A DNA stretch of 30,314 nucleotides, taken from positions 1 through 30,314 of IMG/VR virus record IMGVR_UViG_2675903650_000004; one strand, given 5' to 3'. The stretch's first letter is position 1. Each line of letters opens with the position of its first letter. The notes beneath the pieces were generated by a model. The model had not been told where the DNA came from. It ran no database searches and saw only the letters and a list, made by a program, of their open reading frames with translations. The DNA is from a virus (taxonomy: Duplodnaviria > Heunggongvirae > Uroviricota > Caudoviricetes). Positions 3,398 to 22,113 of the stretch are shown here, in pieces. The translations under genes were made by a program, and so were the position numbers.

Positions 3398-3812
3398 AGA
3401 AACCACCGTTTACTGTGCATAAAGACCCACCTTAGTTGGTGAGTCCATCATACACAATTAATACATATATGGTTTAATTGAAATCCCCAAAAACATTCTG
3501 AATAGGTGAGGTGTTTTCTGGCTCCATAGCTATGACGTGGCTTTTGATGCCTAACTTTATAAGGTGCCACGACAATGTGATAGGTACATAGGATTCAGTT
3601 ACCAATGCAAAGCTTTGTGTGTCTCAGTTTTGTCTCATGCCAACCCAGTAGAATCAATCTACTTAATCTCTCTGCAGTGAATATTTTGTTTGCACGCAAT
3701 TGCACATGATGAACTGGCGCTTATGATAATTTCTGACGGTGATCTGATGGGAGTGAAAGTGCGGCTATCTGATGATACAATGCTCTTCAAAATAAACAGT
3801 TAGGTGATTTTT

Positions 3813-4856
3813 ATGTTGGTCAAAGATGCGCTAAAAAGGGATAACAATAACCTTGACTTAATACGTATTTTTTGTGCAATTTCTGTAATATTTGCCCATT
3901 CATATTATCTTGCAAATTCTGATGGAGCCCAGGAGCCGGTTCAGTCTGTTTTCACATTTACATATACTGGTTCCATTGCTGTAAAAATATTTTTCTTTAT
4001 TAGCGGAATGCTTGTAACTAATAGTTTATTAACAACGCGAAACATACCACACTTTATTTCATCTAGATTTTTTAGAATATTCCCCGCATTCATTTTTGTT
4101 TTATTATTCGCGACATTCATTGTTGGACCATTACTTACAACGCATTCAATGACATCTTATTTAAAAGATACGCTGACGTACAGCTATCTATTTAAAAGCT
4201 CATATTTGGATATGCAATTTTTTCTTCCTGGTGTTTTTGAGGAAAATATATATAAAAGCTCAGTTAATGGTTCTTTATGGACAATACCATATGAAGTTGC
4301 ATCTTATGTCGTGCTCCTAGCATGCTACATGATAACTCAGAGCAGAGGAAGAATAATACCTAGCATCATATGCTTATCAATAATAGCGCTTCCAGTATTG
4401 GGATGGAACAAATTAATTTTTATAAATAACGATAATGCAGATGTGTTTTTAATGGCTCCATGCTTTGCTCTTGGCGCATTGTATGCTATAAACAAGGACA
4501 AAATATACATTTCACTACATGCACCAATAGGATTTGCAATATTATATAATTTTGTGTCAGAACCAACACTCAAGCATATGCTTTTTTATTTTTGCGCATG
4601 TACATTTTTCGTATATTTATCAACAACAAAAATAATAAAATCAATAAGAATAAAACATGATGTATCATATGGCGTTTACTTGTGGGGCTTTTTAATACAG
4701 CAGATAACATTCAGGTTATTACCTGATATAAATCTGTACTTAAATCAAGTTTTATGCATAGCACTATCACTTATTGCTGGACTGATATCATTTATTGCGA
4801 TAGAAAAACCAGCAATGGATATTGGGAAAAAGATATCAAACAAATTCAGATATTAG
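3813..4856 (+). CDS. acyltransferase family 3 membrane protein (O-antigen O-acetyltransferase-like, Oac/OafA type)
   Basis: ORF 3804..4856; ATG 3813 with RBS AGGTGA 5 nt upstream; about 10 TM helices; N-terminal NNxxDxxRxxxAxxVxxxH motif of Acyl_transf_3; very AT-rich codon usage unlike neighbours. Confidence 0.85.
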   Translation: MLVKDALKRDNNNLDLIRIFCAISVIFAHSYYLANSDGAQEPVQSVFTFTYTGSIAVKIFFFISGMLVTNSLLTTRNIPHFISSRFFRIFPAFIFVLLFATFIVGPLLTTHSMTSYLKDTLTYSYLFKSSYLDMQFFLPGVFEENIYKSSVNGSLWTIPYEVASYVVLLACYMITQSRGRIIPSIICLSIIALPVLGWNKLIFINNDNADVFLMAPCFALGALYAINKDKIYISLHAPIGFAILYNFVSEPTLKHMLFYFCACTFFVYLSTTKIIKSIRIKHDVSYGVYLWGFLIQQITFRLLPDINLYLNQVLCIALSLIAGLISFIAIEKPAMDIGKKISNKFRY

Positions 4857-4859
4857 ATA

Positions 4860-4886
4860 AAAAGGGGCTTTCAGCCCCTTTTTTTA
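4860..4886. terminator. bidirectional intrinsic terminator between convergent acyltransferase and tailspike genes
   Basis: Stem AGGGGCT / AGCCCCT with 3-nt loop, A-run upstream and T-run downstream (coordinates approximate). Confidence 0.7.
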
Positions 4887-6986
4887 CGTGGTAGTTGCGG
4901 ATACCTTCCATTCACCAGTTGATACGTATGTCCACTTCCACGGTCCGGTAGAAACCGGACCAAGCAATTCCCACTTGGTGCCAAACGGGAAATTAGTTGT
5001 ATCTCCCGTGGGTGGTGATACTGATAGAACCGTTATATATCCTGACTCAAGTCTGCATAATGCAGTCCATGATGAGTTTCCGGTTATACTATAGGTGCCG
5101 CCTGAATCAACCTTGTTGATCCAGCTCTGCCCACTCCCCCATCTAATAGAATCAGTGGTGTTGTCGGGAATTACCGCACCATTAAAATTTGCAGTTGCAT
5201 CATTAAGATATATGTATTTGCTAGATGAGACTCCAGAGTAACCAGAAAAATGAGATGAAACCAATGAGATGAAACACGATTCCAGAGATACAGCTTCAAC
5301 TCCTCCATCATGATGATTAACCCCTCTAAATGCAGTTACGTTAATTCGACTACCATTTATATCAAATATTTTACCAGTGCCTTCTTCGCTTCCGCATCCA
5401 GATAGATTTACTCCAGTACAATCTTTAAATTTATAGCCAGTACCATTAACGAAGTCAGCAGCCAAACAAGTCAGGCTGCTATATGTAATGTTATTAAAAT
5501 CATATGCAACACCTGAACATGTTTTCACATAAATATTGTTTAAATTATATGTGGTTCCACCTGCTTCGATTTTAACTCCAGTAACGACATCCTGAATAGT
5601 AATGTTTTCCCATGTCTGCAACCAGCTATCACTAGTGCGATAACCGGTTTTCACCCTATGAATATACAGGTCCTGAAGGCGCACATTGTAACTGATAGCG
5701 CTATATATCCCGTAATCACAAGGATTGGGCGCAGTATTTAGAATACTCAATCCAATTATTCTGGTGCTTCTTGTTTGTTTCCCGCTTAAATCACCTGATG
5801 TGTCACTATCCATATCTACCGCAACAATAAAGTCTTTGGAGAAGCTGTGTGGTACACCCTGCCACATGCGATCCGGAACGGTTTTAATATCGTTACCTGT
5901 TTTAATTAATCCACAGGAATCCATACCGCACCCCTCCAGCGTGACACGTGGAGGCACGATAGCGCCATACTTAATATCGTAAAATCCATTGAGTCTGAGC
6001 GTACCTCCTTCATATGGAAGGCATGCAGTCAGGCGTTCAAAGGCTTCACTGTTTTGCTCAGCCGTACATGATGTCATCATGCCACCGTTCTCTACCGGAA
6101 TATCGATGTGGCTTCCAGCTCTCTTCCATCGCTTACCGCCGGGGGTAACAAAAATATTCACACCATCGTCAGCTTCAGAACTGTCAAACGACATGAACAC
6201 CCCACCTCCAAGACCGGGGGTATCGCTATAATAACCTCTGACAATAATTTGCTGGTTTACTGACGAAGGTTCAGTATTTCTTAATGTGGCCACATCAGGG
6301 CAGGAACCGATATTTTTAAACCCATCGGTGGCAGCAAGCTGCAACATGACATCAGTAGCGCTCCCAGATTCCGGGAGAACCATGATTGGGTCTCCTGAAT
6401 CATCCATTGCAACAATCTTATTCTTACGTTGCTCAACGCCGGGCAAAGTTGATATCGGTTCGGGAGTTCGTAGCGTTCTGCTCAGGTTTGTTTCTGCAAG
6501 CCCGTCAACATAATTTTTCGTTGCTGCATCTTGCGGCCTAGATGGGTCACGAAGATTACGAATATAGTTATTCATCGCGTCGTAATAATTAGCCACGAAC
6601 GACGGCTTTCGTAGCGCCAGACTGAACCAATTTCGAACCTGCTGGATCAGCATCGTTAGCTTATCAAAAGCGTTCTCATGCACTTCTGCAAAGAACTTAC
6701 CCTGATTACGCAAATCAGTTTCCTGCGTAACCGGTAGCTCTCGATATATAGAAATCAGATAACCGTTAGCCAACACCTTCGACAGAATTACATTACCACC
6801 GTTATATCCTCCCGCCCCGGTAACTGTGTAATCAGTATCAAGAGCAAGAACAGTGATATTTTCATCAAGGTCAACCACTTGTACTACCAGATCAGATTTC
6901 TGGAAAATCCTGAAGGTATACGGAAATGATGTCGTAACACCGTTACCTGTGTATTCGTTGTGGTCAACTTCGGTTGAGACCGTCAT
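4884..6986 (-). CDS. tailspike / tail fibre with T7 gp17-like N-terminal anchor and beta-helix-like receptor-binding body
   Basis: 700 aa; N-terminal about 150 aa match the conserved podovirus tail-fibre anchor pattern (YTGNGVTTSFPYTF...DYTV) as remembered for T7 gp17; remainder rich in G/S/T/N beta-strand repeats typical of polysaccharide-binding or depolymerase tailspikes. Confidence 0.85.
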   Translation of the reverse strand: MTVSTEVDHNEYTGNGVTTSFPYTFRIFQKSDLVVQVVDLDENITVLALDTDYTVTGAGGYNGGNVILSKVLANGYLISIYRELPVTQETDLRNQGKFFAEVHENAFDKLTMLIQQVRNWFSLALRKPSFVANYYDAMNNYIRNLRDPSRPQDAATKNYVDGLAETNLSRTLRTPEPISTLPGVEQRKNKIVAMDDSGDPIMVLPESGSATDVMLQLAATDGFKNIGSCPDVATLRNTEPSSVNQQIIVRGYYSDTPGLGGGVFMSFDSSEADDGVNIFVTPGGKRWKRAGSHIDIPVENGGMMTSCTAEQNSEAFERLTACLPYEGGTLRLNGFYDIKYGAIVPPRVTLEGCGMDSCGLIKTGNDIKTVPDRMWQGVPHSFSKDFIVAVDMDSDTSGDLSGKQTRSTRIIGLSILNTAPNPCDYGIYSAISYNVRLQDLYIHRVKTGYRTSDSWLQTWENITIQDVVTGVKIEAGGTTYNLNNIYVKTCSGVAYDFNNITYSSLTCLAADFVNGTGYKFKDCTGVNLSGCGSEEGTGKIFDINGSRINVTAFRGVNHHDGGVEAVSLESCFISLVSSHFSGYSGVSSSKYIYLNDATANFNGAVIPDNTTDSIRWGSGQSWINKVDSGGTYSITGNSSWTALCRLESGYITVLSVSPPTGDTTNFPFGTKWELLGPVSTGPWKWTYVSTGEWKVSATTT

Positions 6987-7485: not shown

Positions 7486-7598
7486 ATTTACATCGCACTC
7501 CTCTTGTGCCATAGTAATCGGGTACTGGCAAAATCCAGTGCCGGGATTGGCGTCCCGAGTTACTAAGTGGCGCATACCACGCCAGACGTGGTTTTTTT
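7486..7598 (+). ncRNA. candidate structured leader or small RNA ending at an intrinsic terminator upstream of ant
   Basis: No ORF with RBS; several local hairpins (ACTGG/CCAGT, CGGGA/TCCCG); terminator ACCACG-CCAGA-CGTGGT followed by T7 at about 7576..7598. Confidence 0.3.
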
Positions 7599-8612: not shown

Positions 8613-8792
8613 ATGCGAAACGAAAAATTGCAGATGCGTAGAGCGCAAGCTGCCGCAAGACGTTCTTTCAATGGAAGCGTAGAGTACGTAAAAGTTACTA
8701 TGACAAAAGATCACGCAAGTCGCGTATCCCGCGCTTTCTTTGATTCTCGTAACAATAAGGAAAATTATGAGTTCGTCTGCGTCGCAGAATGA
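8613..8792 (+). CDS. hypothetical 59-aa basic protein (candidate antitoxin or regulator)
   Basis: Not in ORF track (below length cut-off); ATG 8613 with GAGG 7 nt upstream; translation MRNEKLQMRRAQAAARRSF...; 3' end overlaps start of ORF 8767 by 26 nt. Confidence 0.35.
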   Translation: MRNEKLQMRRAQAAARRSFNGSVEYVKVTMTKDHASRVSRAFFDSRNNKENYEFVCVAE

Positions 8793-9312
8793 TAAAAATC
8801 AAATTGTCAGATATAAGGGTCGAGTATTGCATACGCAAAATTTCTCGGCCCTTTGTGCATCTGATCTTGAGCTGAAGAAAGTATCTGATGCCTTTACCCA
8901 GTATTGGAAAACGGGATACCATCCATCTCTTGGTAAAGATGCTGCATTTGCTCGTCCGACAGAAATGCTTAAACTAAATGTCAGGCATACTCATGTCGAT
9001 AACCAAGACTATATTCCAGAAGATAGTGATAAAAAACACACTGGTAAAAAATCATCTTGGGATGCATGGAAAAATATAGCGTCTGTACAAGTAAAATGCA
9101 TACCAACAAGTGATTGCTTTTTAGTTTATTCGGTAAATCACAATCGTGATGCGCTGGTTATGTTTTTTGTTGACGCAGATGCTCACAACATAACTGAGCA
9201 AGAAGAGTTTAAAGAGGCAGCAATCACTATCAGTTATCAATTCTTTGAGAAAACAAAAACAGAACCAATGCCTTTAGAAGAAGATCTTTTTTCTGATAAA
9301 TGGAAGGAATAG
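8767..9312 (+). CDS. hypothetical protein with YafO-like toxin motif (candidate toxin or abortive-infection effector)
   Basis: ORF 8740..9312 (TTG); ATG 8767 with AAGGA RBS; central G[KR]DA...RP...H.H.. and LVY...D.D.H pattern resembles YafO-family toxins as recalled from memory; AT-rich; own promoter/operator upstream and terminator downstream. Confidence 0.7.
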   Translation: MSSSASQNDKNQIVRYKGRVLHTQNFSALCASDLELKKVSDAFTQYWKTGYHPSLGKDAAFARPTEMLKLNVRHTHVDNQDYIPEDSDKKHTGKKSSWDAWKNIASVQVKCIPTSDCFLVYSVNHNRDALVMFFVDADAHNITEQEEFKEAAITISYQFFEKTKTEPMPLEEDLFSDKWKE

Positions 9313-9404: not shown

Positions 9405-9566
9405 ATGAAAAAAGCATTTGCTGCACTGTTCGTTTTGTTGTCTCTGGTAGCTTCAACTCAGGCCTTTGCCGGTCGTTGTCAGCACGACAGCGATACTGCC
9501 GCTGACGGCTCCCGCTGCGGTGGGCGTTCTGCGGATTCCCGCCCGGGCGGCGGTGGCATTCGTTAA
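9405..9566 (+). CDS. signal-peptide mini-ORF (53 aa; small exported peptide or remnant of a truncated secreted-protein gene)
   Basis: Internal ATG of ORF 9300..9566; classic Sec signal MKKAFAALFVLLSLVASTQAFA then a GC-rich 31-codon tail with two Cys; weak RBS; possible promoter TTGACG at about 9364. Confidence 0.35.
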   Translation: MKKAFAALFVLLSLVASTQAFAGRCQHDSDTAADGSRCGGRSADSRPGGGGIR

Positions 9567-9589
9567 AAACAAGGCCGCGAAAGCGGCCT

Positions 9590-9601
9590 GTGACATGTCA
9601 C
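9590..9601. repeat. perfect 12-bp palindrome GTGACATGTCAC, copy 1 of 3
   Basis: Identical 12-mer also at 27084..27095 and 29349..29360; all three at 3' ends of transcription units next to hairpins. Confidence 0.8.
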
Positions 9602-9604
9602 GAC

Positions 9605-10018
9605 TTATAAAGATGACTGATATTTTACAACTCTGTTCATGGCATCTTTTTTCACCGAGCTGATATCAGTTCTTATTTTGGCTTCGTCATTACTGCTTAT
9701 CATGCTATTAATTTTTTGCACTGACATGCCGTTTCTTTCAGCCATTGCACATACAGCAGCATCGTATGAAGAACTCGCTGCGATGGATATCACCTTGTTA
9801 CACTCAAACACAGCACCTTCAGCAATATCAGATGCCGATGAGGCTGGCTTGGTATAAGTCTTGACGTAGTGATCAATACAACTATCCTTCGCCGTCTTGG
9901 CAAGAGAAAAATCCATTTTAACTTTGTCGCAATATGCCTTATCAACACCGTCATAAACATCATAGGATGTCGAGCAAGCGGATATCAAAAATACCGATAA
10001 CAGCAATAATTCCTTCAT
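9605..10018 (-). CDS. lipoprotein (moron at distal end of the ejection-protein operon)
   Basis: 137 aa; signal peptide with lipobox ISAC; AAGGAA RBS; AT-rich relative to upstream structural genes; Cys-rich periplasmic domain. Confidence 0.8.
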   Translation of the reverse strand: MKELLLLSVFLISACSTSYDVYDGVDKAYCDKVKMDFSLAKTAKDSCIDHYVKTYTKPASSASDIAEGAVFECNKVISIAASSSYDAAVCAMAERNGMSVQKINSMISSNDEAKIRTDISSVKKDAMNRVVKYQSSL

Positions 10019-10027
10019 TGTTGTTCC

Positions 10028-12502
10028 TTATTGCGGAGTGACATCCTGAGGTCGCCACCAGTATGTCTGGTTAAACTCTTTCTTTGAACGTTGCTCCATT
10101 TTACGCAAATAGCCTGGTGAAAAATACTCCTGCATCTGGTTAAAGATCATGTGATCGAGAGCCGCCTTCAAATACCAGAGATTCGCACCAGGCATCAAAC
10201 CTTTCCCAAGCTTAACCAAATCACCACCAGTCTGCTCATTCTTCCCTTCCACAGCATTTAACGGTATACCCTGAGCAATCTTCACTACGTCATCAACCAG
10301 ACCAGCTACCGGGCCAAGCATCGACGCTAGTGCGCCGCTCCCGTACCTGGTGTGGTCAGAGAAAAGAAAATCACCATACAACCCTGCCCCACCACCTTTT
10401 AAAAATGCATTTATCCAGAATTTAACCATGTTGTCACCGGTCATTTCTTTTGGATTTCTCCCATTAATAAGATCAGTAATCTGCATGGAAAGAGCACCAA
10501 GCATGGTTGTGCTTGCTAAAAACGTTGCTATATATGCCGCACGCCCACCAGCAGACGGCATCCCCATAGCTCTATGCCAGTGACGCATAACTACCGAGAT
10601 AGGGAACGATTTAAACAGGAAAACACTTCTCGTTAATTCACCTTTCCATGTTCCACGCTGAAGACCAGACCCTACGAACATCTGTTCACGTGCGCCCGGT
10701 GTAATAACAGCCATATCAACTTCTTCAGTTACGGCACCGAGCAGTTTACGCATTGCCTCAAATTTCACACGTTCAGGCTCACCAAGATGTTTAACTGCTG
10801 AATCAGGGATACGCATAATGCTTTCCGGTGTCAGCATCGTATTATTACCGTTCCCCCAGTCCTCCTGTTGCGCCAGCTTCCATACGCTCCAGTCTGTGTC
10901 AGTAATCCCTTTGCTTTTCAGGATACGAAAATCAGAGTCATCGAGGCTACGAAGGTCTGGTGTCCGTGACACTACTTCTCCCAGGCTTCCCATCATGGTT
11001 ACGCCATAAGCGCGCTTGTGCGCATCTGACCATGCTGTAAGTCCACTGGCACGCATTACCGCCGTTGCCGCCCAACGAGACACAGACGGCCCCATATTAT
11101 CCATCGCCCAGCGGTTAACGCTGCCAAGTAGAGATTCCATCGCCAGACCAGCGCGGCGCGCCCGCGCAAGCTCAGTACGGTTCGTTGGGTCCATAGCTTC
11201 AAGCTGGTTGCGGAATAACTGGTTCATTGGAAGGTTGGTAACCTTCGCAGACAGATATATGGTTCCAAGATCAGAGAACGATGACAGCAACGCGGATCCG
11301 AGCCTGCTGGCAACCAGCCAGTTTCTGATATTGTCAGACCAGCGCGCGATGTGAGGATTCGCAACAGGCTGTGTCTTTCCGGAAATAAAGTTGTACAGGT
11401 TCTCTGTTTTGTTCGCCAGCCGCTCGACGCTACCGGTTTTACTCGGGTTAGCTGTTGCCGTTTCTGCCTTCACCTGATCAAGAAGAGAGCGGAAAACATG
11501 ATCAGGGTTTGGGCCATATGTTTCCACCAGTGCAATATCTTTACTGATACCTTCCAGGTGACCGACCATGATTTCCCATAGAGAGCGATCGCCATAAAGT
11601 TGCTGATATTGCAGATAGGAATCTGCATCTTTGAAATGTATCTGTCGTGATGCATTACCACGGTTAGCACGTGCGCCGGAAATTCGCATTCCGGTATCAG
11701 TAAGCTTATTCAGCCCACCAGTAGCGATCGTGTTATAAGCCTCTCCAAGAAATGCAGACAACTCGGCATCGTTCATCAGTTGTCCATCGGCTCGGATATA
11801 ATATTTGCGATCCAGCTTACCTATAACATCGCTAACCCACTTATCCTTTGATACCGCCCCAACCTTTTCCATAGAATGATGTTGAGGGATTCCCCAGTTT
11901 TCGAGATAGCCAATGTCCCCACCAGCATCATTAAACCGGCGGCGCAGTAGATCTGTCACTTCTCTCCACGCCTTAGCACCTTTTCTTGCTTTAGCATTGC
12001 CAGTATTTTGCCCTCGCATTTCATATACCAGGTCACGCACGCCAGCTTCATCTTCAAACAGGCCAAAAAAGCGAGGATCAACTGCTTCAAATGCCTCTTG
12101 CAATTGACTCAATGCATAATCACGAGTGGCTTTTGTTCTGGACTCAACAGAGAGAAAATTCGATTTACCGTCTGCATTAAAAGCAATAGTACGGTTAAGA
12201 GCGCCGAGTTTCCCATCAGCCCCTTGATAGCTATTGATAAATTTATCCAATCTCTGACGTGCGGCTATAGTGAGGGCCACACGACGTTTCTTTAATGCCG
12301 CTTCTCGCTGTAATTCTTCAGATGCCAATTGTGCTGCACGATATAGCCGCTCTGATTCGGAAAGTTGTCTCCACGACATCGGGTCATCACGAGCAATGGA
12401 GCGCATATTTCGATAAATGCGGTCTTCAATGTTCTGTATTTCTCGCGCCGTTAACGTGCGCTGCGCCGCCTGCTGGACCGCTTGTATACATTCCTGTCTC
12501 AT
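10028..12502 (-). CDS. internal virion / DNA-ejection protein (large)
   Basis: 824 aa, tightly packed in late operon after other core proteins; position and size as in podovirus ejection proteins. Confidence 0.8.
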   Translation of the reverse strand: MRQECIQAVQQAAQRTLTAREIQNIEDRIYRNMRSIARDDPMSWRQLSESERLYRAAQLASEELQREAALKKRRVALTIAARQRLDKFINSYQGADGKLGALNRTIAFNADGKSNFLSVESRTKATRDYALSQLQEAFEAVDPRFFGLFEDEAGVRDLVYEMRGQNTGNAKARKGAKAWREVTDLLRRRFNDAGGDIGYLENWGIPQHHSMEKVGAVSKDKWVSDVIGKLDRKYYIRADGQLMNDAELSAFLGEAYNTIATGGLNKLTDTGMRISGARANRGNASRQIHFKDADSYLQYQQLYGDRSLWEIMVGHLEGISKDIALVETYGPNPDHVFRSLLDQVKAETATANPSKTGSVERLANKTENLYNFISGKTQPVANPHIARWSDNIRNWLVASRLGSALLSSFSDLGTIYLSAKVTNLPMNQLFRNQLEAMDPTNRTELARARRAGLAMESLLGSVNRWAMDNMGPSVSRWAATAVMRASGLTAWSDAHKRAYGVTMMGSLGEVVSRTPDLRSLDDSDFRILKSKGITDTDWSVWKLAQQEDWGNGNNTMLTPESIMRIPDSAVKHLGEPERVKFEAMRKLLGAVTEEVDMAVITPGAREQMFVGSGLQRGTWKGELTRSVFLFKSFPISVVMRHWHRAMGMPSAGGRAAYIATFLASTTMLGALSMQITDLINGRNPKEMTGDNMVKFWINAFLKGGGAGLYGDFLFSDHTRYGSGALASMLGPVAGLVDDVVKIAQGIPLNAVEGKNEQTGGDLVKLGKGLMPGANLWYLKAALDHMIFNQMQEYFSPGYLRKMEQRSKKEFNQTYWWRPQDVTPQ

Positions 12503-12507
12503 TTAAT

Positions 12508-14310
12508 TTAACCTCTCAAGAAACACGCCACAGCGACATCAAACAGGCTGGAATCCTGTATTGCCTGCTCACTTTCCCTGTTCGCTTCATCCAGTACTTC
12601 ACGCGCGCTGCGCGATTGTGGATTACCATCATCATCCAGCACGGTGATTATCATGTCAGGTGATTCAAGCAACGAGTCTTCAGCTATGCGCAGATCAATA
12701 TCTCCTGCCTGATCCGCCATCATTTTTTGTTCTGCCTGTTGCAATATTTTATCAGGCTCAAAAGGAGCTACTTCGTCTGGCGTCCTGACCTCTGCTGTTT
12801 TATAGAATGAAACAGCCTGAGCATTAAGTTCACTTTCTACCTGCAGTCGCCGTGCCAGTTCTGCTCGAGCTTCAAAAAACTGACCTCCATGCTCGTGCGG
12901 CGCCAACGCGTTACGGGAAAATTCCAGGCGTTCTTGTGCCTGCCGGATTCGTTGGTCAATATCGCGAATTCTGGCCTGTTTATCTGATCGAGCACGAGAC
13001 AAAGCTTTACCGCTACCAGTTGGCTCTTCTGCAAGAATTTGTGCGCGCTGTTCAGTGAGATTGTCGAGAATTCGTTGGCTATTAGCGATTTCAGACTGGT
13101 AAACCTGTCTATCGCCACGCGGCAAAAGCTGCGCAGCCTGTTCTTCAAGCAACCGATTTTCGATAGCGCGCGCCGTTACTCCATCATCTACAGATGACAG
13201 AGCCTCATTAACTGCCTGAGACAGCAGATTCTTGCGCCCAGGAATTTCACTGAAAGATGCAGACTCAACAATGCTGGCAACGTCTACAGGTCTCCCCTGG
13301 CTAACAGCAGACATAGCTTTTCGCAGAGCCTGAATGTGAGAATTGCGCGAAAGCACGTTGATCGGCACGCCGGGAGCAATATCAATTTCAGCATGATGAG
13401 CGGCATTCGCCGCCAGTGCAGCATCGATATCAACTGGTGAAAAGTTTGGTGCGTTTGTAGACTCGCCGCGAGAGTTAATAAATCTGCCGACTCCACCAAA
13501 AGCCACCCCAAGAACAGCATCAATAGCAATTGCCTGTCGATCCAACACATCATACTGGTTAGCCATTTCGCTATAGCCACCATCACGAAGCGTTTTTGCA
13601 GTAAGCCCGCGCTGTGCCATACCGAACGCAATATTTGTACCTGCGGCATAGGCAATATCTGGCGTTGCACGTACTGCTGTTGCCGCGGCGCGTCGCACTG
13701 AACTTTCACCCGTCCGCGCAAGCTGAGCCGCCACACCTTCCGCTAGCGCACCACCAGCACGTAACCCGAGACTCATAGGGATCAGTGTTCCGGCACCAGC
13801 AGTAATACCCTGCACTAATCCCGCTTCCTGCGCCGTCCTGAAATCAACCCCCTGAGCTGTCAGTCGTTCAAACTCAGAAAAACCCTGTAGCGAAGTTACC
13901 GCCGCAGCACCTCCGACCGGACCACCGAGCGTTGTACCGACAACAGCCTGCCCGCCCATATCGAACAACCCATAAAGAACCTGCCCTGCGGTTCCGGTTG
14001 TCGCGGCATCAGGCGTCAGCCGCTTAACCTGCTGCTCTGCTAGTTTTCTCTGCTCGGCAATGTATGAAACTGAAGTGTCATTGAGCGAGGTGTTTTCGTT
14101 AACAAACTGAGCAATCGGGGATACGATTTTATCCATCCCTGCCCATAGCAACTGATCTGGCTTTGCCACCAGCCCGGAGTACAAACCAGACAATGCCGCT
14201 CCTACAGCATTGTCGAAAAAACCAACATCGCTGTTAAAGCCAGCTGGATTTGATGCTGCTTCGTCAAGCTGCTGATTCTGGTTTACTGGATTAAGGCCAA
14301 AGTAACTCAT
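12508..14310 (-). CDS. internal virion / DNA-ejection protein
   Basis: 600 aa, Gly/Ala-rich segments; overlaps upstream gene by 4 nt. Confidence 0.8.
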   Translation of the reverse strand: MSYFGLNPVNQNQQLDEAASNPAGFNSDVGFFDNAVGAALSGLYSGLVAKPDQLLWAGMDKIVSPIAQFVNENTSLNDTSVSYIAEQRKLAEQQVKRLTPDAATTGTAGQVLYGLFDMGGQAVVGTTLGGPVGGAAAVTSLQGFSEFERLTAQGVDFRTAQEAGLVQGITAGAGTLIPMSLGLRAGGALAEGVAAQLARTGESSVRRAAATAVRATPDIAYAAGTNIAFGMAQRGLTAKTLRDGGYSEMANQYDVLDRQAIAIDAVLGVAFGGVGRFINSRGESTNAPNFSPVDIDAALAANAAHHAEIDIAPGVPINVLSRNSHIQALRKAMSAVSQGRPVDVASIVESASFSEIPGRKNLLSQAVNEALSSVDDGVTARAIENRLLEEQAAQLLPRGDRQVYQSEIANSQRILDNLTEQRAQILAEEPTGSGKALSRARSDKQARIRDIDQRIRQAQERLEFSRNALAPHEHGGQFFEARAELARRLQVESELNAQAVSFYKTAEVRTPDEVAPFEPDKILQQAEQKMMADQAGDIDLRIAEDSLLESPDMIITVLDDDGNPQSRSAREVLDEANRESEQAIQDSSLFDVAVACFLRG

Positions 14311-16820
14311 TGCGGAATATCTCCGGAGAATCTCTGACGCTTCTGTGTCAGATCAAGAACAACAGGAGAACCATCATCCTTCAGCAGATATCCAGTCCCA
14401 AGTTTTACCAGGTACTGACTATCGCCGTAACTTTGCAAACCATACTGACCAGGCGGTGTTTTTATCCCTGTGCCGACAACTTGTTCATTCCAAGCCTGAT
14501 TAACCTGCTTATCGAATTGCTCTGCAGACATTCCCCACGGCAAAAGAACATTCCCCATTCCGTTATAGTCATGCACGCCACCTGTAGCTACGTTAACAGC
14601 CTGTTTCCAGATATCATTGTCAATTTCGCCTGATACCACGCCTTTTTTCGCCATCACACCAGCGTAATAGTCCTTTGCGATCTCGTATGCCATTGATGCC
14701 CCCTGAGCATCACCAGCAAATGCATCCTTCACCATGTCAGAAAACTCAAGGCGAAGATCAGCATCTTTAGGCATCGGAATACCTTTCGCATCATCAGTAC
14801 CTTTACGAGCCGCCGCGCCAGCAAGAATTGTCTGCGCAGCGGTTTCAGGAGACACGGAAACATCCGGATTAAACCAGTTTTTTTCTGCCAAAATACCACC
14901 AGGCTTATCCATCAGTATCCCGGCAACGGCAGCAGATGGAGCGTTGGCACTGATCTGCTGTAGTGCTGACATATACACCTGCCCACCGCCAGTGCTTTGC
15001 CTGATGGTATCGAGATATGCTGCCTGTTGGGAAACGGGCGCATCACGAAAGAAAACACCGATCTGATTGGCCTCGTCTTTGGAAAAGAACGTCAGTGGAG
15101 TGCCATATGACTTGGCAAGGTCACTGACCTGAGCGGCACGCAAGGCAACGCTCTGTCCAAAGTTATCCTTATTGCTCATGTCGATAGGCTTTGCCTGTCC
15201 GGCGGCAAGAGAGAACTGCACAGGATCCGATTGCCGCTGCTTTATCACCTGATTTGCAGCCGAAACAACGTTGTCATAAAGAGCTGCGCGTGCCGCATAC
15301 CCCTCCCCTGTCTCACCAGTATCCGGGCGTAATTGCTCAACATATGCTGTAATGCTGCTTGTCGGCATGTTGCGGAAAGAACCTATATACTGTCCGGCGA
15401 TCTGCGTATTCTTAAACTCGGTATATCGCAGGTTTCCTTCTCTGACACCATAAGCTGCAATAAAATCATCCTCACCAGGTGGGTTAGGAAATTCAACGCC
15501 ACGCATATACGCAGCTGTCGCATCACGAACCTGGCTGTCAATCATCGTTTTATATTCAGCCTGCTGCTGCCGACGCAGTTGATCCGCCTGCCGCATAAAA
15601 CTTGCCTGAGCCTCAGGAGATGCCGCATCGAATGCTGCATTACCGGTATAGCGTTTGGTGTTGGTTGGAATTGTTGATAAACCAAGTGCTGCACTGACAC
15701 CAGCAGTTAACTGCTGATCACTGTATGGCTGACTACCGTTCTCATGATGGATAATGGCTGCACAAAGCGCCTTCAGGGTATCAGGATTTGATGCATCGAG
15801 AGGCTCATCAGCAGAAACGCCAAGTTGTTCGCACACTGCTTTGATATACGACATAGTGTCATTTTTATCAGTAGGCGGTGCCCAGCGATTAATTATCTCG
15901 CTGACGGTATCGATACCCTGCCGCTGATACGACATCAGGTTACGCCCTAATGCACGAATCCCGTGCTCAGGTGTTTCGAATTTAGCAAATCGACCATCAT
16001 CACCGGTCTGGCCTACCCACGGATTAGTTTTGCTGTATTCGAGATTTCCTGGGTTATTGTTGCGTATGCCACGGGCACGCTCGGAAGAGTCATTATCTGC
16101 TACAGCACGGCGAGCTCCAGCAGCAGTATCACTTAACTCGCCATTACTTTGGATGAATGCGGTCGCATTGCTTGCCGACCACTGGGACAATGCGGCATCA
16201 GCAACCTTCTCTTTAAACTCGATTTTCTTGGCCTGGATTTGCTCGTCGCTCCAGCCATGCGCAATGCCGTAATCCTCAATTTGCTGGAAAGTTTGCTTAT
16301 TAGCCAATACGTATGCGGCGTTGTCGCCATACAATGCTGCGGCATTTTTACCATTGTTCAGCAGCGTCGCCTGAAACTGGCCTTCTTCGTAGGCATTTAT
16401 TTGCCCTATCTCGTGCCGCCCGGCCTGCGTAGTGAACTGAATGCGCTGCTGCTGCGCCTGCTGCATGAAAGCATTACGAGCTTGTTCATCCGGCAGCGAC
16501 ATAGCCAGTTGCTCGACCTGGGCATCAAACTGCTGCGTATACTCCTGACCTTTTCCAGTAGCATTTTTCCCTTTCAGGTTAAGCAAACCTGTTTCAGGGT
16601 TATTCAGCAGATCACTGCTTATCTGACTGAGGTTAAGAGATGCCTCCTGAGCCAGAGCGATATTGGCACGCTGTTTTGCCTGCCCCAAAACATCAATTGC
16701 CTCTGTCCCTGCCCGAACAAAAGCATCACCAATACCTGGCTGAGAAAACGTCTGCAAGCCTGCTGACTGAACTCCACGGCTCTCAACCTGGCGTCCGGAT
16801 ACTGTTGGTACGACTGGCAT
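14307..16820 (-). CDS. internal virion protein with conserved NNNPGN...RWAP domain (possible cell-wall-active ejection protein)
   Basis: ORF 14307..16895; start set at MPVVPTV (ATG 16820) which overlaps upstream stop as TAATG and has GGAGG RBS; motif NNNPGNLEYSKTNPWVGQTGDDGRFAKFETPEHGIRALGRNLMSYQRQGIDTVSEIINRWAP. Confidence 0.8.
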   Translation of the reverse strand: MPVVPTVSGRQVESRGVQSAGLQTFSQPGIGDAFVRAGTEAIDVLGQAKQRANIALAQEASLNLSQISSDLLNNPETGLLNLKGKNATGKGQEYTQQFDAQVEQLAMSLPDEQARNAFMQQAQQQRIQFTTQAGRHEIGQINAYEEGQFQATLLNNGKNAAALYGDNAAYVLANKQTFQQIEDYGIAHGWSDEQIQAKKIEFKEKVADAALSQWSASNATAFIQSNGELSDTAAGARRAVADNDSSERARGIRNNNPGNLEYSKTNPWVGQTGDDGRFAKFETPEHGIRALGRNLMSYQRQGIDTVSEIINRWAPPTDKNDTMSYIKAVCEQLGVSADEPLDASNPDTLKALCAAIIHHENGSQPYSDQQLTAGVSAALGLSTIPTNTKRYTGNAAFDAASPEAQASFMRQADQLRRQQQAEYKTMIDSQVRDATAAYMRGVEFPNPPGEDDFIAAYGVREGNLRYTEFKNTQIAGQYIGSFRNMPTSSITAYVEQLRPDTGETGEGYAARAALYDNVVSAANQVIKQRQSDPVQFSLAAGQAKPIDMSNKDNFGQSVALRAAQVSDLAKSYGTPLTFFSKDEANQIGVFFRDAPVSQQAAYLDTIRQSTGGGQVYMSALQQISANAPSAAVAGILMDKPGGILAEKNWFNPDVSVSPETAAQTILAGAAARKGTDDAKGIPMPKDADLRLEFSDMVKDAFAGDAQGASMAYEIAKDYYAGVMAKKGVVSGEIDNDIWKQAVNVATGGVHDYNGMGNVLLPWGMSAEQFDKQVNQAWNEQVVGTGIKTPPGQYGLQSYGDSQYLVKLGTGYLLKDDGSPVVLDLTQKRQRFSGDIPQ

Positions 16821-17365
16821 TATAATCCTCCGGGTAATCTGGTTCCTGCTGCTGCCCCGATTGGCGCATGAGTGCTTTGAGTAAACGGACTCCACGTCCC
16901 ACCAAACATCTGGTACGCACCGTATGCCTTCAGAGGCGCAGTGAGCAATGTTGTTGCTGCTCCCACATTCCCCTGTTTACGGGCTGAACTGGCTTCTGCT
17001 TTATAGTTGGCAGCCTGAACCTGATAACCGTAAGCCTCACGTTGCGCGTTATTCACCGTCGTCAGCGCATCAAGAGCGCCAAACTGAGCAGTGTCACCAA
17101 ATATATCCAGCGCGTTACCGGTAGATAAATCAGCGCCGGTAGCCCCCATTGTCGCCGCTTGTGTGCCAAGCCGCTGCCGGGTCTCTCTGCGCCGTTGCTC
17201 AGCTTCAGCGTTACCTCTGTTTATTGCATCATTTGCCTGAGCAGTGGCTATATCTGCGTTCGCTTCTGCAACCTTCGAGGCATACTTTCCCTGTTGGTAC
17301 TGGGTGTATGCCTGAATGCCACTCATGGCAAGCATTGCGCCACCAGCAATAACCGGATCACACAT
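16820..17365 (-). CDS. internal virion protein (T7 gp14-like)
   Basis: 181 aa; N-terminus MCDPVIAGGAMLAMSGIQAYTQYQQ followed by Ala/Gln-rich helices resembles T7 gp14-type core protein as remembered. Confidence 0.65.
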   Translation of the reverse strand: MCDPVIAGGAMLAMSGIQAYTQYQQGKYASKVAEANADIATAQANDAINRGNAEAEQRRRETRQRLGTQAATMGATGADLSTGNALDIFGDTAQFGALDALTTVNNAQREAYGYQVQAANYKAEASSARKQGNVGAATTLLTAPLKAYGAYQMFGGTWSPFTQSTHAPIGAAAGTRLPGGL

Positions 17366-17829
17366 TATTTTCTCTCCATGTGAAATCTGTGGAAATTAAG
17401 ACCAAGAGCACCATAAGGCGCGGCTTCTTCAAGCCTGAATCCAAGCCAGTGCAGCCATGCTTTGGCAACATGGTTTCGCTCGTCGACGTAGTTTTCCAGG
17501 CGCGGATAAACTGCCAGCATCTGCTGCAATACAGGGCGGCAGTGGCGCAGAAATGTCTTCTGATATTTTTCAATACGGCTGGTTCCGACCAGCCAGGGCG
17601 TACCATTGCCACCAATCATTGACGCCGGTGATACACCAAACATGGTTACCAGTTCTCTGTTCGCAAACCCTGACCAGGCCATAGTCGCAGTGCGCAGACC
17701 AACACGTAGCGCATCTTCGGTAGTCATCAGCGATACCGCATACAGTTCGTCAATATCAGCCTGACGAACATCCGGCAAAATCATCTGAAGATGCTCTTCG
17801 GTAGCGGGAATAATTCGAACATCGATCAT
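17365..17829 (-). CDS. hypothetical virion-associated protein
   Basis: 154 aa, translationally coupled between nozzle-like and core protein genes. Confidence 0.6.
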   Translation of the reverse strand: MIDVRIIPATEEHLQMILPDVRQADIDELYAVSLMTTEDALRVGLRTATMAWSGFANRELVTMFGVSPASMIGGNGTPWLVGTSRIEKYQKTFLRHCRPVLQQMLAVYPRLENYVDERNHVAKAWLHWLGFRLEEAAPYGALGLNFHRFHMERK

Positions 17830-20300
17830 CAGAACCCCCCAACAGTAAGGCGAGGAATAACGGCAAGAACAGACAGCGGCAACGGGTCAAGCTGACGGAT
17901 TCTTACACGTCCGTTTTTTCCCCAGTTACTGTCCAGTTTCACATCTACTTTTCCGGTAGCGTCATCAACAGGATCATCGTAGAACTCGAATTCACGCTGT
18001 GGATATTCGTACCATTTACCGCCGGGCGTAGTCGCCCAGATGCCGCGACTGGCATTCACCACCAGGGTAACGGACGGGATCACCTGTTTTTTGTCCAGCA
18101 GTGTTTCCTGTCCGTTAATGTTGATATCCAGTGTTTCGAATTCAGAAGTTATTGGCAGGCCGATGTGCACTACAGCCCCCGGTGATTCCAGCGTGACGGC
18201 ACCTCCGGAAACCACTTTCTGTGGTTCCACGTTCGCATCAGAGAGAATGTTTACGGTCTGGCCTTCAAGATGAGACAGGCCTCCAAATGTCCGGCGCGCC
18301 ATCTGCCAGTTCGTGGTGGCCGCATTCCTGAGGGATGGCGGGACGTTCCTGTTGGCACGAACCACTACAGCGGTATTGCTGGTTACAGAAATAATGTCGC
18401 AACGTAATTCTTTTGACACTTCATCGCCAGTATCAGGATCAGTTCCGGTATAAGGGAACTGTAGTTGCGCGTCGACATCACTACTGGTGAAGTACGCACC
18501 ACCAGAAACACTGATTGTATATTCCGTACGGTAATCCCATTCACCAGAACCACCAGTGATGGTCATTGTTCTGTCAGACGTATTTCTTCCATCATAGCTA
18601 AGGCCAGAATCAACAAAGAAAGCATCTTCATCGCTGGTAAATAAACGGCTGGACAGTCGCTCGATGTATCTCACTGTTTGCCCGTTAACGGTTCGGTTAA
18701 CGACGAAATACACCGCATCTTCATTGCCTTCGCTGATACTGCATGTGCTTTCATATTTTCCGGTACTGGATTGTGGTGCCCATGCAAAAACCTGCTGATC
18801 ACGCAAATAGGTCATCACCAGTAATTTACCGTCATCACGAATGCAGAAGGCACTGGAGTAAGGGACAATCGAGAAGCACCAGTCAACAATGCTGTGCTTC
18901 TGAAAAAGATGATTGGCAAGGATAGTAAGGTCGTTCCCCTGATAGCCGTCAACATCGAATGAGTAGGCCAGATCACGGACAACACTGCCTTTCTCCTGGA
19001 CGAACAGAGCAATATTCGCCACGGCAATTGGTGGGACATTGCTCGAGCCATTTGATCCCTGAGAGCTGAATGCAAATGATGATGGGGTTAACACTTTGTT
19101 CTGGTCGCCGGTGATGACGTACTCACCTCCGGAAGTCAGTGCCACCAGCGAACCGACATCAATCAGGTGACGGATCTCATTAACCTGACGCCCGGCATAG
19201 GTGTAGATAATTCTGTCGTCATCCTGCGTAGGATTGCTTTTACCAAAATCCTTATAATCACCGGTACGGCTGGCCCAGATAGTCTGAGGGAACGCAGTCG
19301 ATGCGGCAAAGTAAAGACGTTGTTGATAATAAACAACAGTGCCAGGATAACCGTTAACACTGTTCCAGGCATATTTAGCCCATTTATAGCTTGCATTATT
19401 CGCACCAACTACCTGCGAAGGGATATAGGAAATCACCTCGGCAGTTGCAGTAGTTCCATTTGCAGCAGTGATACGGGCAATGCCAAAACCACTGTGCAGA
19501 TATTCCCACTCAATGCCGGTATCATCATCACCGGATCCGCCCCAGCCATCCCATGATGTGCCTTCTGTATGCGAAGGGCGCAAAGTGCATGTTTTGCCTG
19601 CTGTAACGGCGCGATAGTAGTTACTGTCTGCACGGCGAATATCGCCAATCGACGTACTCTTACTGGTTTCCCATACCGGTACTGAATCCACTGCTGGCTG
19701 TTCCAGATAGAACAATTTGCCTACCTGCTCCACGCCAAAAATAGAGGCGCTTGCCGTTAACGTAATTGTCCCGGTGCTGGCGCTGGCATAAACCGTCACT
19801 GACTCGTCAATATTGATATCTTCAAATGGCCCGTTCTTCGTTACCACATCAACCAGTTGCCAGTTGTCATGCGCATAGCGGCGCAACTCTTTCGGCGGGT
19901 ATGCCGGATGAACCAGCGTAAGCACGTCTGCGCTTTGCGTGAATTTAATTCTGAACAGATCGGCTTCAGTATATGGCGTGGCAATTTCATAAATAACATT
20001 GCTGCTGTTCAGCACCAACGCACCATCTTTGATAACGCGCATGTACTGGTGTCCGAACTCCAGAGCATAAGTCTGAACCGTCGAGAACTGGAACGGGATC
20101 AGGCGGCATTTCCGATTTGGGTATTTGGCGGCACCGACAAAACGCGTACCAGGTCGATTCTCAACGCCGCCATACTGCCGCACGATAAAGTTATCGCACT
20201 TGCGCAATGCCACCTGGTACTTCGCCATGTCGATACGTCCGTACAACGACGGTCCAATCTCACCACCAGCAAAGCTGGGCTGGATCCAACTGATAGCCAT
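17829..20300 (-). CDS. tail tubular protein B-like (nozzle, T7 gp12-like)
   Basis: 823 aa; N-terminal pattern MAISWIQPSFAGGEIGPSLYGRID...NRPGTRF and size consistent with podovirus nozzle proteins. Confidence 0.75.
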   Translation of the reverse strand: MAISWIQPSFAGGEIGPSLYGRIDMAKYQVALRKCDNFIVRQYGGVENRPGTRFVGAAKYPNRKCRLIPFQFSTVQTYALEFGHQYMRVIKDGALVLNSSNVIYEIATPYTEADLFRIKFTQSADVLTLVHPAYPPKELRRYAHDNWQLVDVVTKNGPFEDINIDESVTVYASASTGTITLTASASIFGVEQVGKLFYLEQPAVDSVPVWETSKSTSIGDIRRADSNYYRAVTAGKTCTLRPSHTEGTSWDGWGGSGDDDTGIEWEYLHSGFGIARITAANGTTATAEVISYIPSQVVGANNASYKWAKYAWNSVNGYPGTVVYYQQRLYFAASTAFPQTIWASRTGDYKDFGKSNPTQDDDRIIYTYAGRQVNEIRHLIDVGSLVALTSGGEYVITGDQNKVLTPSSFAFSSQGSNGSSNVPPIAVANIALFVQEKGSVVRDLAYSFDVDGYQGNDLTILANHLFQKHSIVDWCFSIVPYSSAFCIRDDGKLLVMTYLRDQQVFAWAPQSSTGKYESTCSISEGNEDAVYFVVNRTVNGQTVRYIERLSSRLFTSDEDAFFVDSGLSYDGRNTSDRTMTITGGSGEWDYRTEYTISVSGGAYFTSSDVDAQLQFPYTGTDPDTGDEVSKELRCDIISVTSNTAVVVRANRNVPPSLRNAATTNWQMARRTFGGLSHLEGQTVNILSDANVEPQKVVSGGAVTLESPGAVVHIGLPITSEFETLDININGQETLLDKKQVIPSVTLVVNASRGIWATTPGGKWYEYPQREFEFYDDPVDDATGKVDVKLDSNWGKNGRVRIRQLDPLPLSVLAVIPRLTVGGF

Positions 20301-20905
20301 CAGGACAACCTCGCAATGGTAAACTCATCAACCGGTGGCTGAGGTTCCTGTGATTCATTCTGGCTATGCGAGCCAGCACTAAGAATCTCGCGATTGTACA
20401 TATTGAGGGCAAACGTACCGAGGTCTGCATTCCCAGTCAGCGCCATGTTAATAGCTGCCGCAAGACGCCAGGCCAACGCCTCCATAAAAATGGCATCAAA
20501 CATGTTCACATCTGAAACGCGAGAGACATACTTGAGCCATGCCTGCGGCTGGTCTGTGTAGATCAATTTTCCTGTTCCGTTGGTGTCTGCACCAACTTCG
20601 TACTGAACGCGCATTGCTGCTGTTGGATTGCGTACACCAGGAAGCATAATTTCAGTAATGCGCAGACAATCGGACGGGTACTGGTACGCATATTCCCAGT
20701 CAGGCGGTGGATTGCTCGTATCTGCAAGCGCCACGCGTTTGGTAGCAAAGTTCCAGTCAAAATCAGAAAGCACAGCATCACGGCAGGCCTCAAAGTGCAG
20801 CGAACATTCCCCCGCTTCCTTGCTGGCTTCCGTCAGGCTGTTAATGCTGCGGCTGTTGCCAATATTGGACAGCGCACGATTGCAGATCTCTACTACAGAG
20901 GCCAT
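20300..20905 (-). CDS. tail tubular protein A-like / adaptor (T7 gp11-like)
   Basis: 201 aa immediately upstream of nozzle gene, stop/start overlaps; N-terminus MASVVEICNRALSNIGNSRSINSL resembles gp11-type adaptors by pattern. Confidence 0.6.
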   Translation of the reverse strand: MASVVEICNRALSNIGNSRSINSLTEASKEAGECSLHFEACRDAVLSDFDWNFATKRVALADTSNPPPDWEYAYQYPSDCLRITEIMLPGVRNPTAAMRVQYEVGADTNGTGKLIYTDQPQAWLKYVSRVSDVNMFDAIFMEALAWRLAAAINMALTGNADLGTFALNMYNREILSAGSHSQNESQEPQPPVDEFTIARLS

Positions 20906-21228
20906 TACTCACCCCCATTGCCGTACAGAGTTTCAGCCGCTGATTTTTCTACATCACCGGAAACAGGAGCGATTGCCATATCAGTGATCTGCAGATCGGC
21001 GCTGCGATTAACACCATCGTCAGTTTCTCTGGCAGACAGGCCTCGAATAACAGCCTTTGCAGTTATCATCACTTCTGTTCCGACGCCCTGAGGTTGCGCC
21101 TTCAGCTTATTCAATGTGTCGTTATTCAGCGTGATGCACAGCCCCCACGGGTATTCATCGCGAGTTCTGGTTTCTCCGCTCTCATCCTGGTAGCTGTCAG
21201 TGCCGGTTTTGAGGTTTACGAGTTCCAT
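20905..21228 (-). CDS. hypothetical head/tail structural protein
   Basis: ORF 20905..21234; ATG at 21228 (MELVNLK); in late operon. Confidence 0.55.
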   Translation of the reverse strand: MELVNLKTGTDSYQDESGETRTRDEYPWGLCITLNNDTLNKLKAQPQGVGTEVMITAKAVIRGLSARETDDGVNRSADLQITDMAIAPVSGDVEKSAAETLYGNGGE

Positions 21229-21278
21229 ATACACTCCTGCAATAAAGGGGCCGAAGCCCCTTGTCTGATTCGCGAGGC

Positions 21279-21614
21279 TTACACGCCCAGTTCTTTACGC
21301 TTATCTGCGATCTTCTCGCGGAGCGTTTCGGCTTTGGCGTTATGGTGTGGCTTCTCGTTAAAGAGCAATTCGTACTCTTCACGGAGCTTATCCAGTTCAC
21401 CATCATCTGACACATCGTTGATGATTTTGGTGCTGGTTGCTGCCATTGACACCTTTCCTGCAACTTTTGCTTTTGCCTGTCTGGCTGCATCGTTAACAGG
21501 TTCCAGTGCGCTACCAGGCTCACCTTCGTATTCGATTTCTGCCCCCTCCGGCCACAGAGTGTTATGGATATGAGAGAGGCGCAGAACGCGGTATCTTGGT
21601 TTCTCACCTGACAT
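21279..21614 (-). CDS. hypothetical structural protein
   Basis: ORF 21279..21623; ATG 21614 with AAGGTGA RBS. Confidence 0.55.
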   Translation of the reverse strand: MSGEKPRYRVLRLSHIHNTLWPEGAEIEYEGEPGSALEPVNDAARQAKAKVAGKVSMAATSTKIINDVSDDGELDKLREEYELLFNEKPHHNAKAETLREKIADKRKELGV

Positions 21615-21624
21615 CAATATCACC

Positions 21625-22062: not shown

Positions 22063-22113
22063 CTTCTTTCTCCATTAGTGGGTCTGTTACGACCCACAGG
22101 TTAATAACAGGCG

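Follow-up and report, generated by a model that had tools for sequence, protein, structure and literature searches.

A lipoprotein gene behind the ejection-protein operon of an epsilon15/phiV10-type Escherichia coli prophage: an exchangeable cassette and a possible superinfection exclusion factor

What does a small lipoprotein gene do at the end of the ejection-protein operon of a prophage, and did it get there as an appended moron? We considered this question for a 137-aa gene in a stretch of viral DNA of 30,314 nucleotides (the window). A first-pass annotation had described this gene as an AT-rich lipoprotein moron appended to the operon, and had suggested superinfection exclusion of the Cor or Llp type, or virulence, as its function. 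Our results support this interpretation in part. The gene is a cassette replacement in a conserved slot and not an appended insertion, and superinfection exclusion appears, by analogy, to be its most likely function.

Sequence matches identify the window as an E. coli prophage of the epsilon15/phiV10 type (Uetakevirus). The DNA flanking the lipoprotein gene matches the Uetakevirus phages phiV10, phiv142-3, HEMP4 and vB_EcoP_ZX5 and the O157 typing phages, and more weakly the SPN1S-type phages of Salmonella. E. coli UMNK88 has an identical copy of the gene, in a prophage adjoining yfgH-yfgI. Capsid and portal genes and genes for an acyltransferase-3, a tailspike and a Bro-N antirepressor are also present. 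The lysis cassette comprises two holins, a GH19 endolysin and a DUF2514 Rz, and one of several large internal-virion genes in a row encodes a 181-aa protein of the T7 gp14 family. The 824-aa gene is the last large gene of this T7 gp14/15/16-like block, and the lipoprotein gene comes directly after it on the same strand, which is the minus strand and should be worded so. Since phiV10 p20 and epsilon15 gp17 correspond to the 824-aa protein, the annotated position, last after the ejection/internal-virion block, is accurate. The features are collected in Table 1.

Table 1. Coordinates of the features in the window
Feature	Position	Strand	Remarks
137-aa lipoprotein gene (phrog_8691)	9605..10018	minus	stop codon included; ORF list and profile match
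Codons 1-15: predicted signal peptide MKELLLLSVFLISA and lipid-modified Cys15	9974..10018	minus	read from the sequence
Shine-Dalgarno AAGGA	10025..10029	minus	overlaps TAA (10028-10030) of the upstream gene; 6 nt before ATG
Upstream 824-aa internal-virion/ejection-type gene	10028..12502	minus	equals phiV10 p20 and epsilon15 gp17 (phrog_684)
Exchangeable cassette	9602..10027	minus	blastn of slot regions
Exact 12-bp palindrome GTGACATGTCAC	9590..9601	.	downstream cassette boundary
Further copies of GTGACATGTCAC	27084-27095, 29349-29360		
Intrinsic terminator, hairpin AGGCCGCTTTCGCGGCCT then T-run	9562..9589	minus	starts 15 nt past the lipoprotein stop codon; terminator-like hairpin with T-run at 9589-9572
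Convergent gene for a 53-aa secreted or membrane-anchored small protein (phrog_14503)	9405..9566	plus	downstream flank, outside the cassette
190-aa ORF	8740-9312	plus	antirepressor region; 36.8% GC
Tailspike gene	4884-6986	minus	
Acyltransferase-3 gene	3804-4856	plus	31.7% GC
DUF2514 Rz gene with embedded Rz1-type o-spanin candidate	1600-2082	minus	candidate in the +1 frame
115-aa Cys-rich (zinc-ribbon-like) ORF	29357-29704	minus	ends in GTGACATGTCAC
Strong terminator hairpin and T-run	29290-29307		after the 115-aa ORF
224-aa ORF, listed TTG start	29316		start probably too far upstream

The ORF starts with ATG and is a real gene, not a chance ORF, because its dN/dS is 0.05 (see below) and its match to phrog_8691 is full-length (E = 1.6e-91; all 137 residues align with all 137 positions of the profile). 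As the definition of a bacterial lipoprotein (an Lgt/LspA substrate) we used an N-terminal positive residue, an uncharged hydrophobic core and a lipobox [LVI][ASTVI][GAS]C with its Cys in the first ~35 residues. Read from the sequence, the N-terminus MKELLLLSVFLISAC has Lys2, a hydrophobic core without charge and the lipobox I-S-A-C15 (LISA/C15). A lipobox is present in all eight of the aligned family members, and one family member matches Pfam LPAM_1. The protein is thus a predicted lipoprotein, with lipidation at C15. Its mature form would have ~122 aa and is predicted to be all-helical, and the 137-aa sequence has no hydrophobic segment past the signal peptide. A Ser at position +2 directs lipoproteins to Lol-dependent outer-membrane sorting, and the Ser at +2 here predicts the same.

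There are five Cys in the protein (3.6%), namely C15 and the four of the mature domain (C30, C47, C73 and C90), and all of them are invariant in the family down to 26% identity. The label "Cys-rich" in the first-pass annotation is modest but real. The AF2 model (pLDDT 85) has six helices, including H24-55 and H74-96. Because the Cys spacings (17 and 17 residues) and the equal sums (30+90 = 47+73) fit the helices of this model, two disulfides, C30-C90 and C47-C73, probably staple two antiparallel helices.

Searches placed the protein in a small family. A word-indexed search gave 17 clusters in E. coli, Enterobacter, Citrobacter and Cedecea, and a second profile search added members from Providencia/Morganella and "Pseudomonadota". 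An exhaustive HMM search of 1.8 billion cluster representatives gave only four further distant lipoproteins, of 137-142 aa, and a tblastn search of 50,697 phage genomes gave no match in deposited phages. The homology and structure searches that had been proposed for this gene returned no named family in Pfam, NCBIfam, PADLOC or PHROGs and, for the AF2 model, no structural match in a fold search. A Linker_histone match had an E value of 0.0011 but lay under the cut-off, and we regarded it as noise. In addition, literature searches on phiV10/epsilon15, Uetakevirus, podovirus exclusion and RefSeq WP_000661385 found nothing on the gene or its slot. The family therefore seems to be tiny and unnamed, and new within the familiar class of phage accessory genes.

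The junction between the 824-aa gene and the lipoprotein gene reads TAAGGAACAACAATG, and the Shine-Dalgarno sequence therefore lies over the upstream stop codon, close before the ATG; the gene has its own RBS, as annotated. The same RBS/stop-codon junction was found in a Citrobacter locus (L095), and the 9-nt spacing after the gp17-like stop codon is mostly kept by the other cassette types described below. The 9-nt gap and the RBS over the stop codon imply co-transcription with the late operon, and translation is probably coupled with it as well. In a consensus-based scan of 400 nt upstream on the minus strand, which a weak or activator-dependent promoter can escape, there was no sigma-70-like promoter of at least 9/12. 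The best relaxed candidate reached 8/12, and its -35 element is not conserved among relatives. Meanwhile, the terminator behind the gene ends the late operon and belongs to the conserved downstream flank, that is, it is the operon's own; epsilon15 and phiV10 carry an equivalent annotated terminator. By this architecture, the lipoprotein gene is the last cistron of the late operon.

The convergent 53-aa gene in the same flank encodes a peptide with a Gly/Arg-rich tail and two Cys, and phrog_14503 is labelled "membrane associated protein". This gene is 97-99% conserved beside slots with other cassette types and is common to the lambdoid phage TL-2011b.

The slot itself was delimited by pairwise blastn. 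Similarity to the phiV10, 57-aa-type and 41-aa-type loci stops at ~10024-10028 and restarts at ~9602-9605. Thus, homology breaks 3-7 nt past the upstream stop codon and resumes at the lipoprotein stop codon. Beyond the cassette, identity is 97-99% through the terminator, and also through the 53-aa gene in all loci but phiV10. Because of these two boundaries, the gene is an allelic cassette in a pre-existing slot.

We surveyed which gene comes after the gp17-like stop codon in 92 loci (the window, 88 related loci, and phiV10, phiv142-3 and UMNK88). The spacing is usually 9 nt, and the contents are nearly always small 2-TM proteins or unrelated lipoproteins. For instance, ~39 loci combine a 57-aa protein that has two hydrophobic helices with a downstream 98-aa multi-TM protein, ~22 loci have the 137-aa lipoprotein, and ~20 loci have a 46-aa 2-TM protein (phiV10 p21, annotated with two TM helices). 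Four loci carry a 41-aa TM peptide with an unrelated ~126-aa lipoprotein (lipobox LLVGC, phrog_3716). An unrelated 159-aa lipoprotein occupies the slot in Pectobacterium, an unrelated 102-aa lipoprotein lies further downstream (~290 nt past the stop codon) in Pantoea, and a 102-aa Sec-exported protein is found in Citrobacter werkmanii. In epsilon15, the slot gene is that of gp18, a 64-aa 2-TM protein; it overlaps the stop codon of gp17, and the annotated terminator comes after it. Only in two Sodalis loci does the terminator follow directly. Furthermore, four cassettes were counted in 5,426 complete E. coli genomes: the 57-aa + 98-aa cassette occurs in 205 genomes, the 46-aa cassette in 53, the 41-aa + lipoprotein cassette in 34 and the 137-aa lipoprotein cassette in 22, the last being 22 of the 314 genomes that have one of the four. 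Family and cassette searches returned no known function for any slot cassette protein or any member of the lipoprotein family.

The C. werkmanii slot protein (L004, 4223 region) deserves a separate remark. It shares the central C47..C73 helix-turn core with the lipoprotein family (hhalign probability 92%, E = 5e-7). However, it has a signal-peptidase-I-type leader without a lipobox and is predicted to be non-lipidated. It belongs to its own small family of hypothetical proteins (P0026-P0039) in Enterobacter, Klebsiella and E. coli.

The moron label can now be judged. The composition is that of a moron: the GC content of the gene is 39.4%, versus 50.8 +/- 2.7% (minimum 44.4%) in 414-bp windows over 10028-30000, so the clearly lower GC than in the structural genes is confirmed. 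In three other lineages it is 35-41%, versus 47-56% for the neighbours. As an AT-rich accessory lipoprotein gene among late genes, it resembles lambda bor. However, classical morons have their own promoter and terminator and are inserted between genes that are adjacent in relatives. Here the upstream scan found no promoter, and the relatives have other cassettes at this place, with the empty slot seen only in Sodalis. The word "appended" therefore does not fit, and the foreign composition does.

At the downstream boundary of the cassette lies the palindrome GTGACATGTCAC. Of 117 retrieved loci, 84 have conserved it, irrespective of cassette type and with epsilon15 among them (positions 7518-7529 of its locus, L106). 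The palindrome occurs three times in the window, with ~0.002 expected by chance. All three copies directly follow or overlap a stop codon, and an intrinsic-terminator hairpin comes 0-40 nt downstream. The palindrome may bind a protein or work as an RNA element in the termination or antitermination of late transcription, or it may mark a recombination boundary. In addition, the 115-aa ORF that ends in one of the copies is followed by a strong terminator just upstream of a small-terminase-like gene, a layout that recalls a late-operon antitermination checkpoint.

Sequence comparison between alleles bears on the selection and history of the lipoprotein gene. Between the E. coli and Citrobacter/Enterobacter alleles, dS is 0.51 and dN is 0.025 (dN/dS 0.05), whereas dS is 3.8 for the gp17-like gene and 3.3 for the 600-aa gene. 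There are 32 synonymous and 8 non-synonymous changes between E. coli and Citrobacter, and the gene is under purifying selection. In this pair, the lipoprotein gene was swapped far more recently than its neighbours diverged. Between E. coli and Cedecea, amino acid identity is 55% for the lipoprotein and 24% for the gp17-like protein; between E. coli and a metagenomic homologue, it is 27% and 25%. Both homologues sit at the end of the same operon, beside ejection proteins only ~24-25% identical, and relatives at 26-55% identity were found in the same slot of divergent phages. Because the family still ends the same operon at these greater distances, its link with the slot is old.

The family is also found outside the phage slot. 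In Morganellaceae, two homologues (P0020 and P0024) each stand alone, with a terminator of their own, in islands with integrase, AlpA, DUF3987 and YfjJ genes. The neighbours that PADLOC recognised are type I and type III REases (E = 0 for the latter), Gabija GajB (5e-121) and a dGTPase (2e-141), and IS elements adjoin some island copies. Another branch (P0025) is carried by 2.4-4 kb Col3M plasmids of Proteus and Providencia, and its gene is one of the two annotated ORFs on a 2.4-kb plasmid. The other ORF (146 aa) has no toxin or other domain match. Distant homologues are located on 2.4-6 kb Col3M-type plasmids of the same genera (L116 and L117; metagenome contigs L107 and L108). On some of them a pentapeptide-repeat (Qnr-like) or GNVR (Wzz-like) gene is present as well, and several metagenome contigs are tandem-assembled copies of small circles. 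Judging from the islands and plasmids, the lipoprotein acts without an epsilon15-like virion. Such contexts speak against a structural or assembly role and fit a cell-autonomous envelope function, and the defence-island neighbourhood suggests a defence role through guilt by association only.

What function could unite these observations? The nearest positional parallel is sieA of phage P22, which is flanked by gene 16, for the last ejection protein, and by the tailspike gene; SieA targets gp16/gp20 and blocks DNA delivery (PMC10883804). This polytopic inner-membrane protein has an FxRYPxEAxxFNK motif on the cytoplasmic side, it exists in three types that are ~25% identical (<30%), only some relatives carry it, and its own promoter lies within 85 bp upstream (PMC10883804). 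The lipoprotein gene shares the position after the last ejection gene and before the tailspike, beside the antirepressor region, as well as the patchy carriage and the envelope location. Here too, the antirepressor (Bro/Ant) and tailspike genes come after the ejection block, as at P22 sieA, which favours exclusion. In contrast to SieA, the 137-aa sequence has no TM segment past the signal peptide, no FxRYPxEAxxFNK motif, no detectable promoter and no sequence similarity to SieA.

We regard superinfection exclusion as the most likely function because of the sieA-equivalent position, the envelope-protein rule of the slot and the homologues beside defence systems. The lipobox and the four invariant Cys, which are typical of the periplasm, the old link with the slot and the mobility of the cassette, as seen in the dS values, count in its favour too. 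Specifically, we tentatively propose that the lipoprotein is a periplasm-facing exclusion factor and a positional analogue of P22 sieA. The analysis shows the gene, its export signals, its cassette nature, the purifying selection, the synteny and the surroundings of its relatives; we infer its localisation, its disulfides and its entire function as follows. The protein would be processed by Sec, Lgt and LspA and anchored, probably, in the inner leaflet of the outer membrane. Its periplasmic domain would be a compact helical bundle, probably with two disulfides. From the periplasmic face, it would disturb the trans-envelope conduit that the T7 gp14/15/16-like ejected proteins of related phages form; alternatively, its target might be a secondary outer-membrane receptor. 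The lipoprotein would then be a functional counterpart of SieA at an equivalent genome position.

Several results stand against exclusion. The protein has no sequence or fold likeness to any known exclusion protein, searches gave no known function for its family or the other slot cassettes, and a dN/dS of 0.05 shows no arms-race signature. Furthermore, no promoter was detected, and the gene is apparently coupled in translation to the late structural operon. For these two reasons, expression in the lysogen can only be presumed. The lipoprotein may act in the lysogen, given a promoter that escaped detection, or it may act only in lytic growth like Llp and Spackle.

The last reading, which we place second and hold to be rather doubtful, is that the protein appears only when the late operon is expressed and works during the lytic cycle of its own producer. 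It might keep progeny or bystander virions from ejecting into infected cells, debris or vesicles, as with T5 Llp and FhuA, or it might neutralise the lytic transglycosylase of superinfecting virions, as T4 Spackle does with gp5 lysozyme. Late co-expression is suggested alike by the 9-nt gap, the RBS over the stop codon, the lack of a detectable promoter in the scan and the terminator shared with the operon, and the neighbouring large internal-virion protein (862 aa) has an SLT domain in relatives. A periplasmic, helical and probably disulfide-bonded protein also has general properties in common with Spackle. However, the homologues in defence islands and on tiny plasmids need no lytic cycle to work, the fold search gave no match, and the T4_Spackle Pfam match is noise (E = 0.82, 10.7 bits versus a cut-off of 27), over residues 1-56 including the signal peptide.

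Other phage proteins that act in the envelope give further comparisons. T5 Llp, an early gene product of a lytic phage, and Cor of phi80 and N15 are exported phage lipoproteins that inactivate FhuA at the outer membrane. Ltp of TP-J34, a Streptococcus thermophilus prophage, binds the DNA-delivery protein of the incoming phage and blocks DNA injection, and T4 Spackle (Sp), a small helical exclusion protein of the periplasm, inhibits the cell-wall hydrolase that incoming virions carry. Cor is cited in PMC11436027, and Ltp is reference 9 in PMC10883804 (see also PMC3952083). Like Llp and Cor, our protein is a phage-encoded exported lipoprotein that would act at the outer membrane against incoming phages. 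However, there is no sequence or structure similarity, and its carrier phages bind O-antigen via tailspikes and not FhuA. Ltp is also a lipoprotein, is about as large, and has an all-helical domain outside the cytoplasm; it differs in its Gram-positive host and its siphophage tape-measure target, and no Pfam or fold match to it was obtained. Spackle is not lipidated and is absent among the fold hits. Overall, profile and fold searches gave no membership with Cor, Llp, Ltp, Bor or TraT, and the supposed Cor/Llp-type relation, in which we also considered Spackle, is not borne out in sequence or fold.

The second function named at the outset, virulence, leads to a further explanation. The protein could be a lysogenic-conversion factor unrelated to phages, an outer-membrane lipoprotein with an effect on serum resistance, adhesion, host interaction or tolerance of envelope stress, comparable with lambda Bor and plasmid TraT. 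The idea fits an AT-rich cargo gene that gut and clinical Enterobacterales carry on prophages, islands and small plasmids, and the carriers include pathogenic isolates such as the porcine strain UMNK88 and APEC strains. We nevertheless consider it unlikely. There is no Bor or TraT family match, and a promoter for expression in the lysogen was not seen in the upstream scan. In addition, it leaves unexplained why the ejection-operon slot is kept across deeply diverged phages and why the slot follows an envelope-protein rule.

A still weaker candidate, in our view very unlikely, is an orphan immunity protein, that is, a periplasmic inhibitor of a peptidoglycan-targeting bacteriocin or type VI effector spread on mobile elements. 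A small periplasmic lipoprotein with predicted disulfides on diverse mobile elements, including Col-type plasmids where it pairs with one 146-aa ORF on a 2.4-kb plasmid, would suit such a role; however, no toxin gene adjoins it in the phage slot, the 146-aa ORF resembles no toxin, and there is no likeness to known immunity folds.

Finally, a phage-intrinsic accessory of assembly, ejection or lysis (a virion lipoprotein, ejectosome chaperone or spanin-like lysis factor) would agree with the place of the gene as last cistron of the virion/ejection operon, but is highly improbable, since a Sec-exported, lipid-anchored protein cannot enter a capsid assembled in the cytoplasm, most relatives including phiV10 and epsilon15 lack the lipoprotein, the Sodalis loci are empty, a small minority of cassette-bearing E. 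coli genomes have it, homologues exist outside phages, and the phage has its own Rz with an embedded Rz1 o-spanin lipoprotein. The structural-virion idea was rejected because of the export, the relatives without the gene and the homologues outside phages; homology to a structural virion lipoprotein, which had been named as the finding that would count against exclusion, was looked for and not found. The spanin idea was also rejected: the Rz1 candidate is embedded in Rz, and the lipoprotein gene lies ~7.5 kb away and encodes a protein that is helical in the model, not one of the Pro-rich, Rz-embedded o-spanin type. The Rz1 candidate has the lipobox LAGC and is Pro/Ser/Thr-rich, and the same embedding is annotated in epsilon15 and phiV10.

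Two other AT-rich genes of the prophage should be mentioned. The very AT-rich acyltransferase-3 gene lies beside the tailspike gene. By analogy, it probably encodes an O-antigen acetylase of the kind with which phiV10 blocks re-adsorption (PMC11854483). If so, it would be a second envelope-level barrier of this prophage. The 190-aa ORF has a strong phrog_1651 match and a borderline YafO-toxin Pfam match (E = 1.2e-5, 25.8 bits versus a cut-off of 25), and its counterpart in the Stx phage TL-2011b is annotated as a YafO-family toxin.

A wider hypothesis would unite the cassettes. The slot after the last ejection gene of epsilon15/phiV10-type podophages might be a recombination-bounded hot spot for ejectosome-directed exclusion factors, running from the conserved stop/RBS to the palindrome and terminator. 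The lipoprotein would then represent a new fold family that inhibits T7-gp14/15/16-type conduits from the periplasm, and its gene would be a self-sufficient anti-phage gene common to phages, defence islands and 2.4-kb Col3M plasmids. We consider this hypothesis speculative and, as a whole, improbable.

If the lipoprotein is not an exclusion factor, it would be an ordinary accessory lipoprotein. If it is one, an uncharacterised lipoprotein family without a detectable fold relative would join the short list of envelope-level anti-phage proteins, and its homologues in defence islands and on tiny Proteus/Providencia plasmids would be candidates for single-gene defence. The alleles of the slot provide a panel of at least six unrelated cassettes for cross-exclusion against O-antigen-specific podophages, among them O157 phages used for detection, such as phiV10. 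Prophage signatures of the slot type occur in several hundred of the 5,426 complete E. coli genomes. Uetakevirus prophages would thus keep an exchangeable "entry-barrier" slot, if the exclusion reading holds, at the place where P22-like phages keep sieA.
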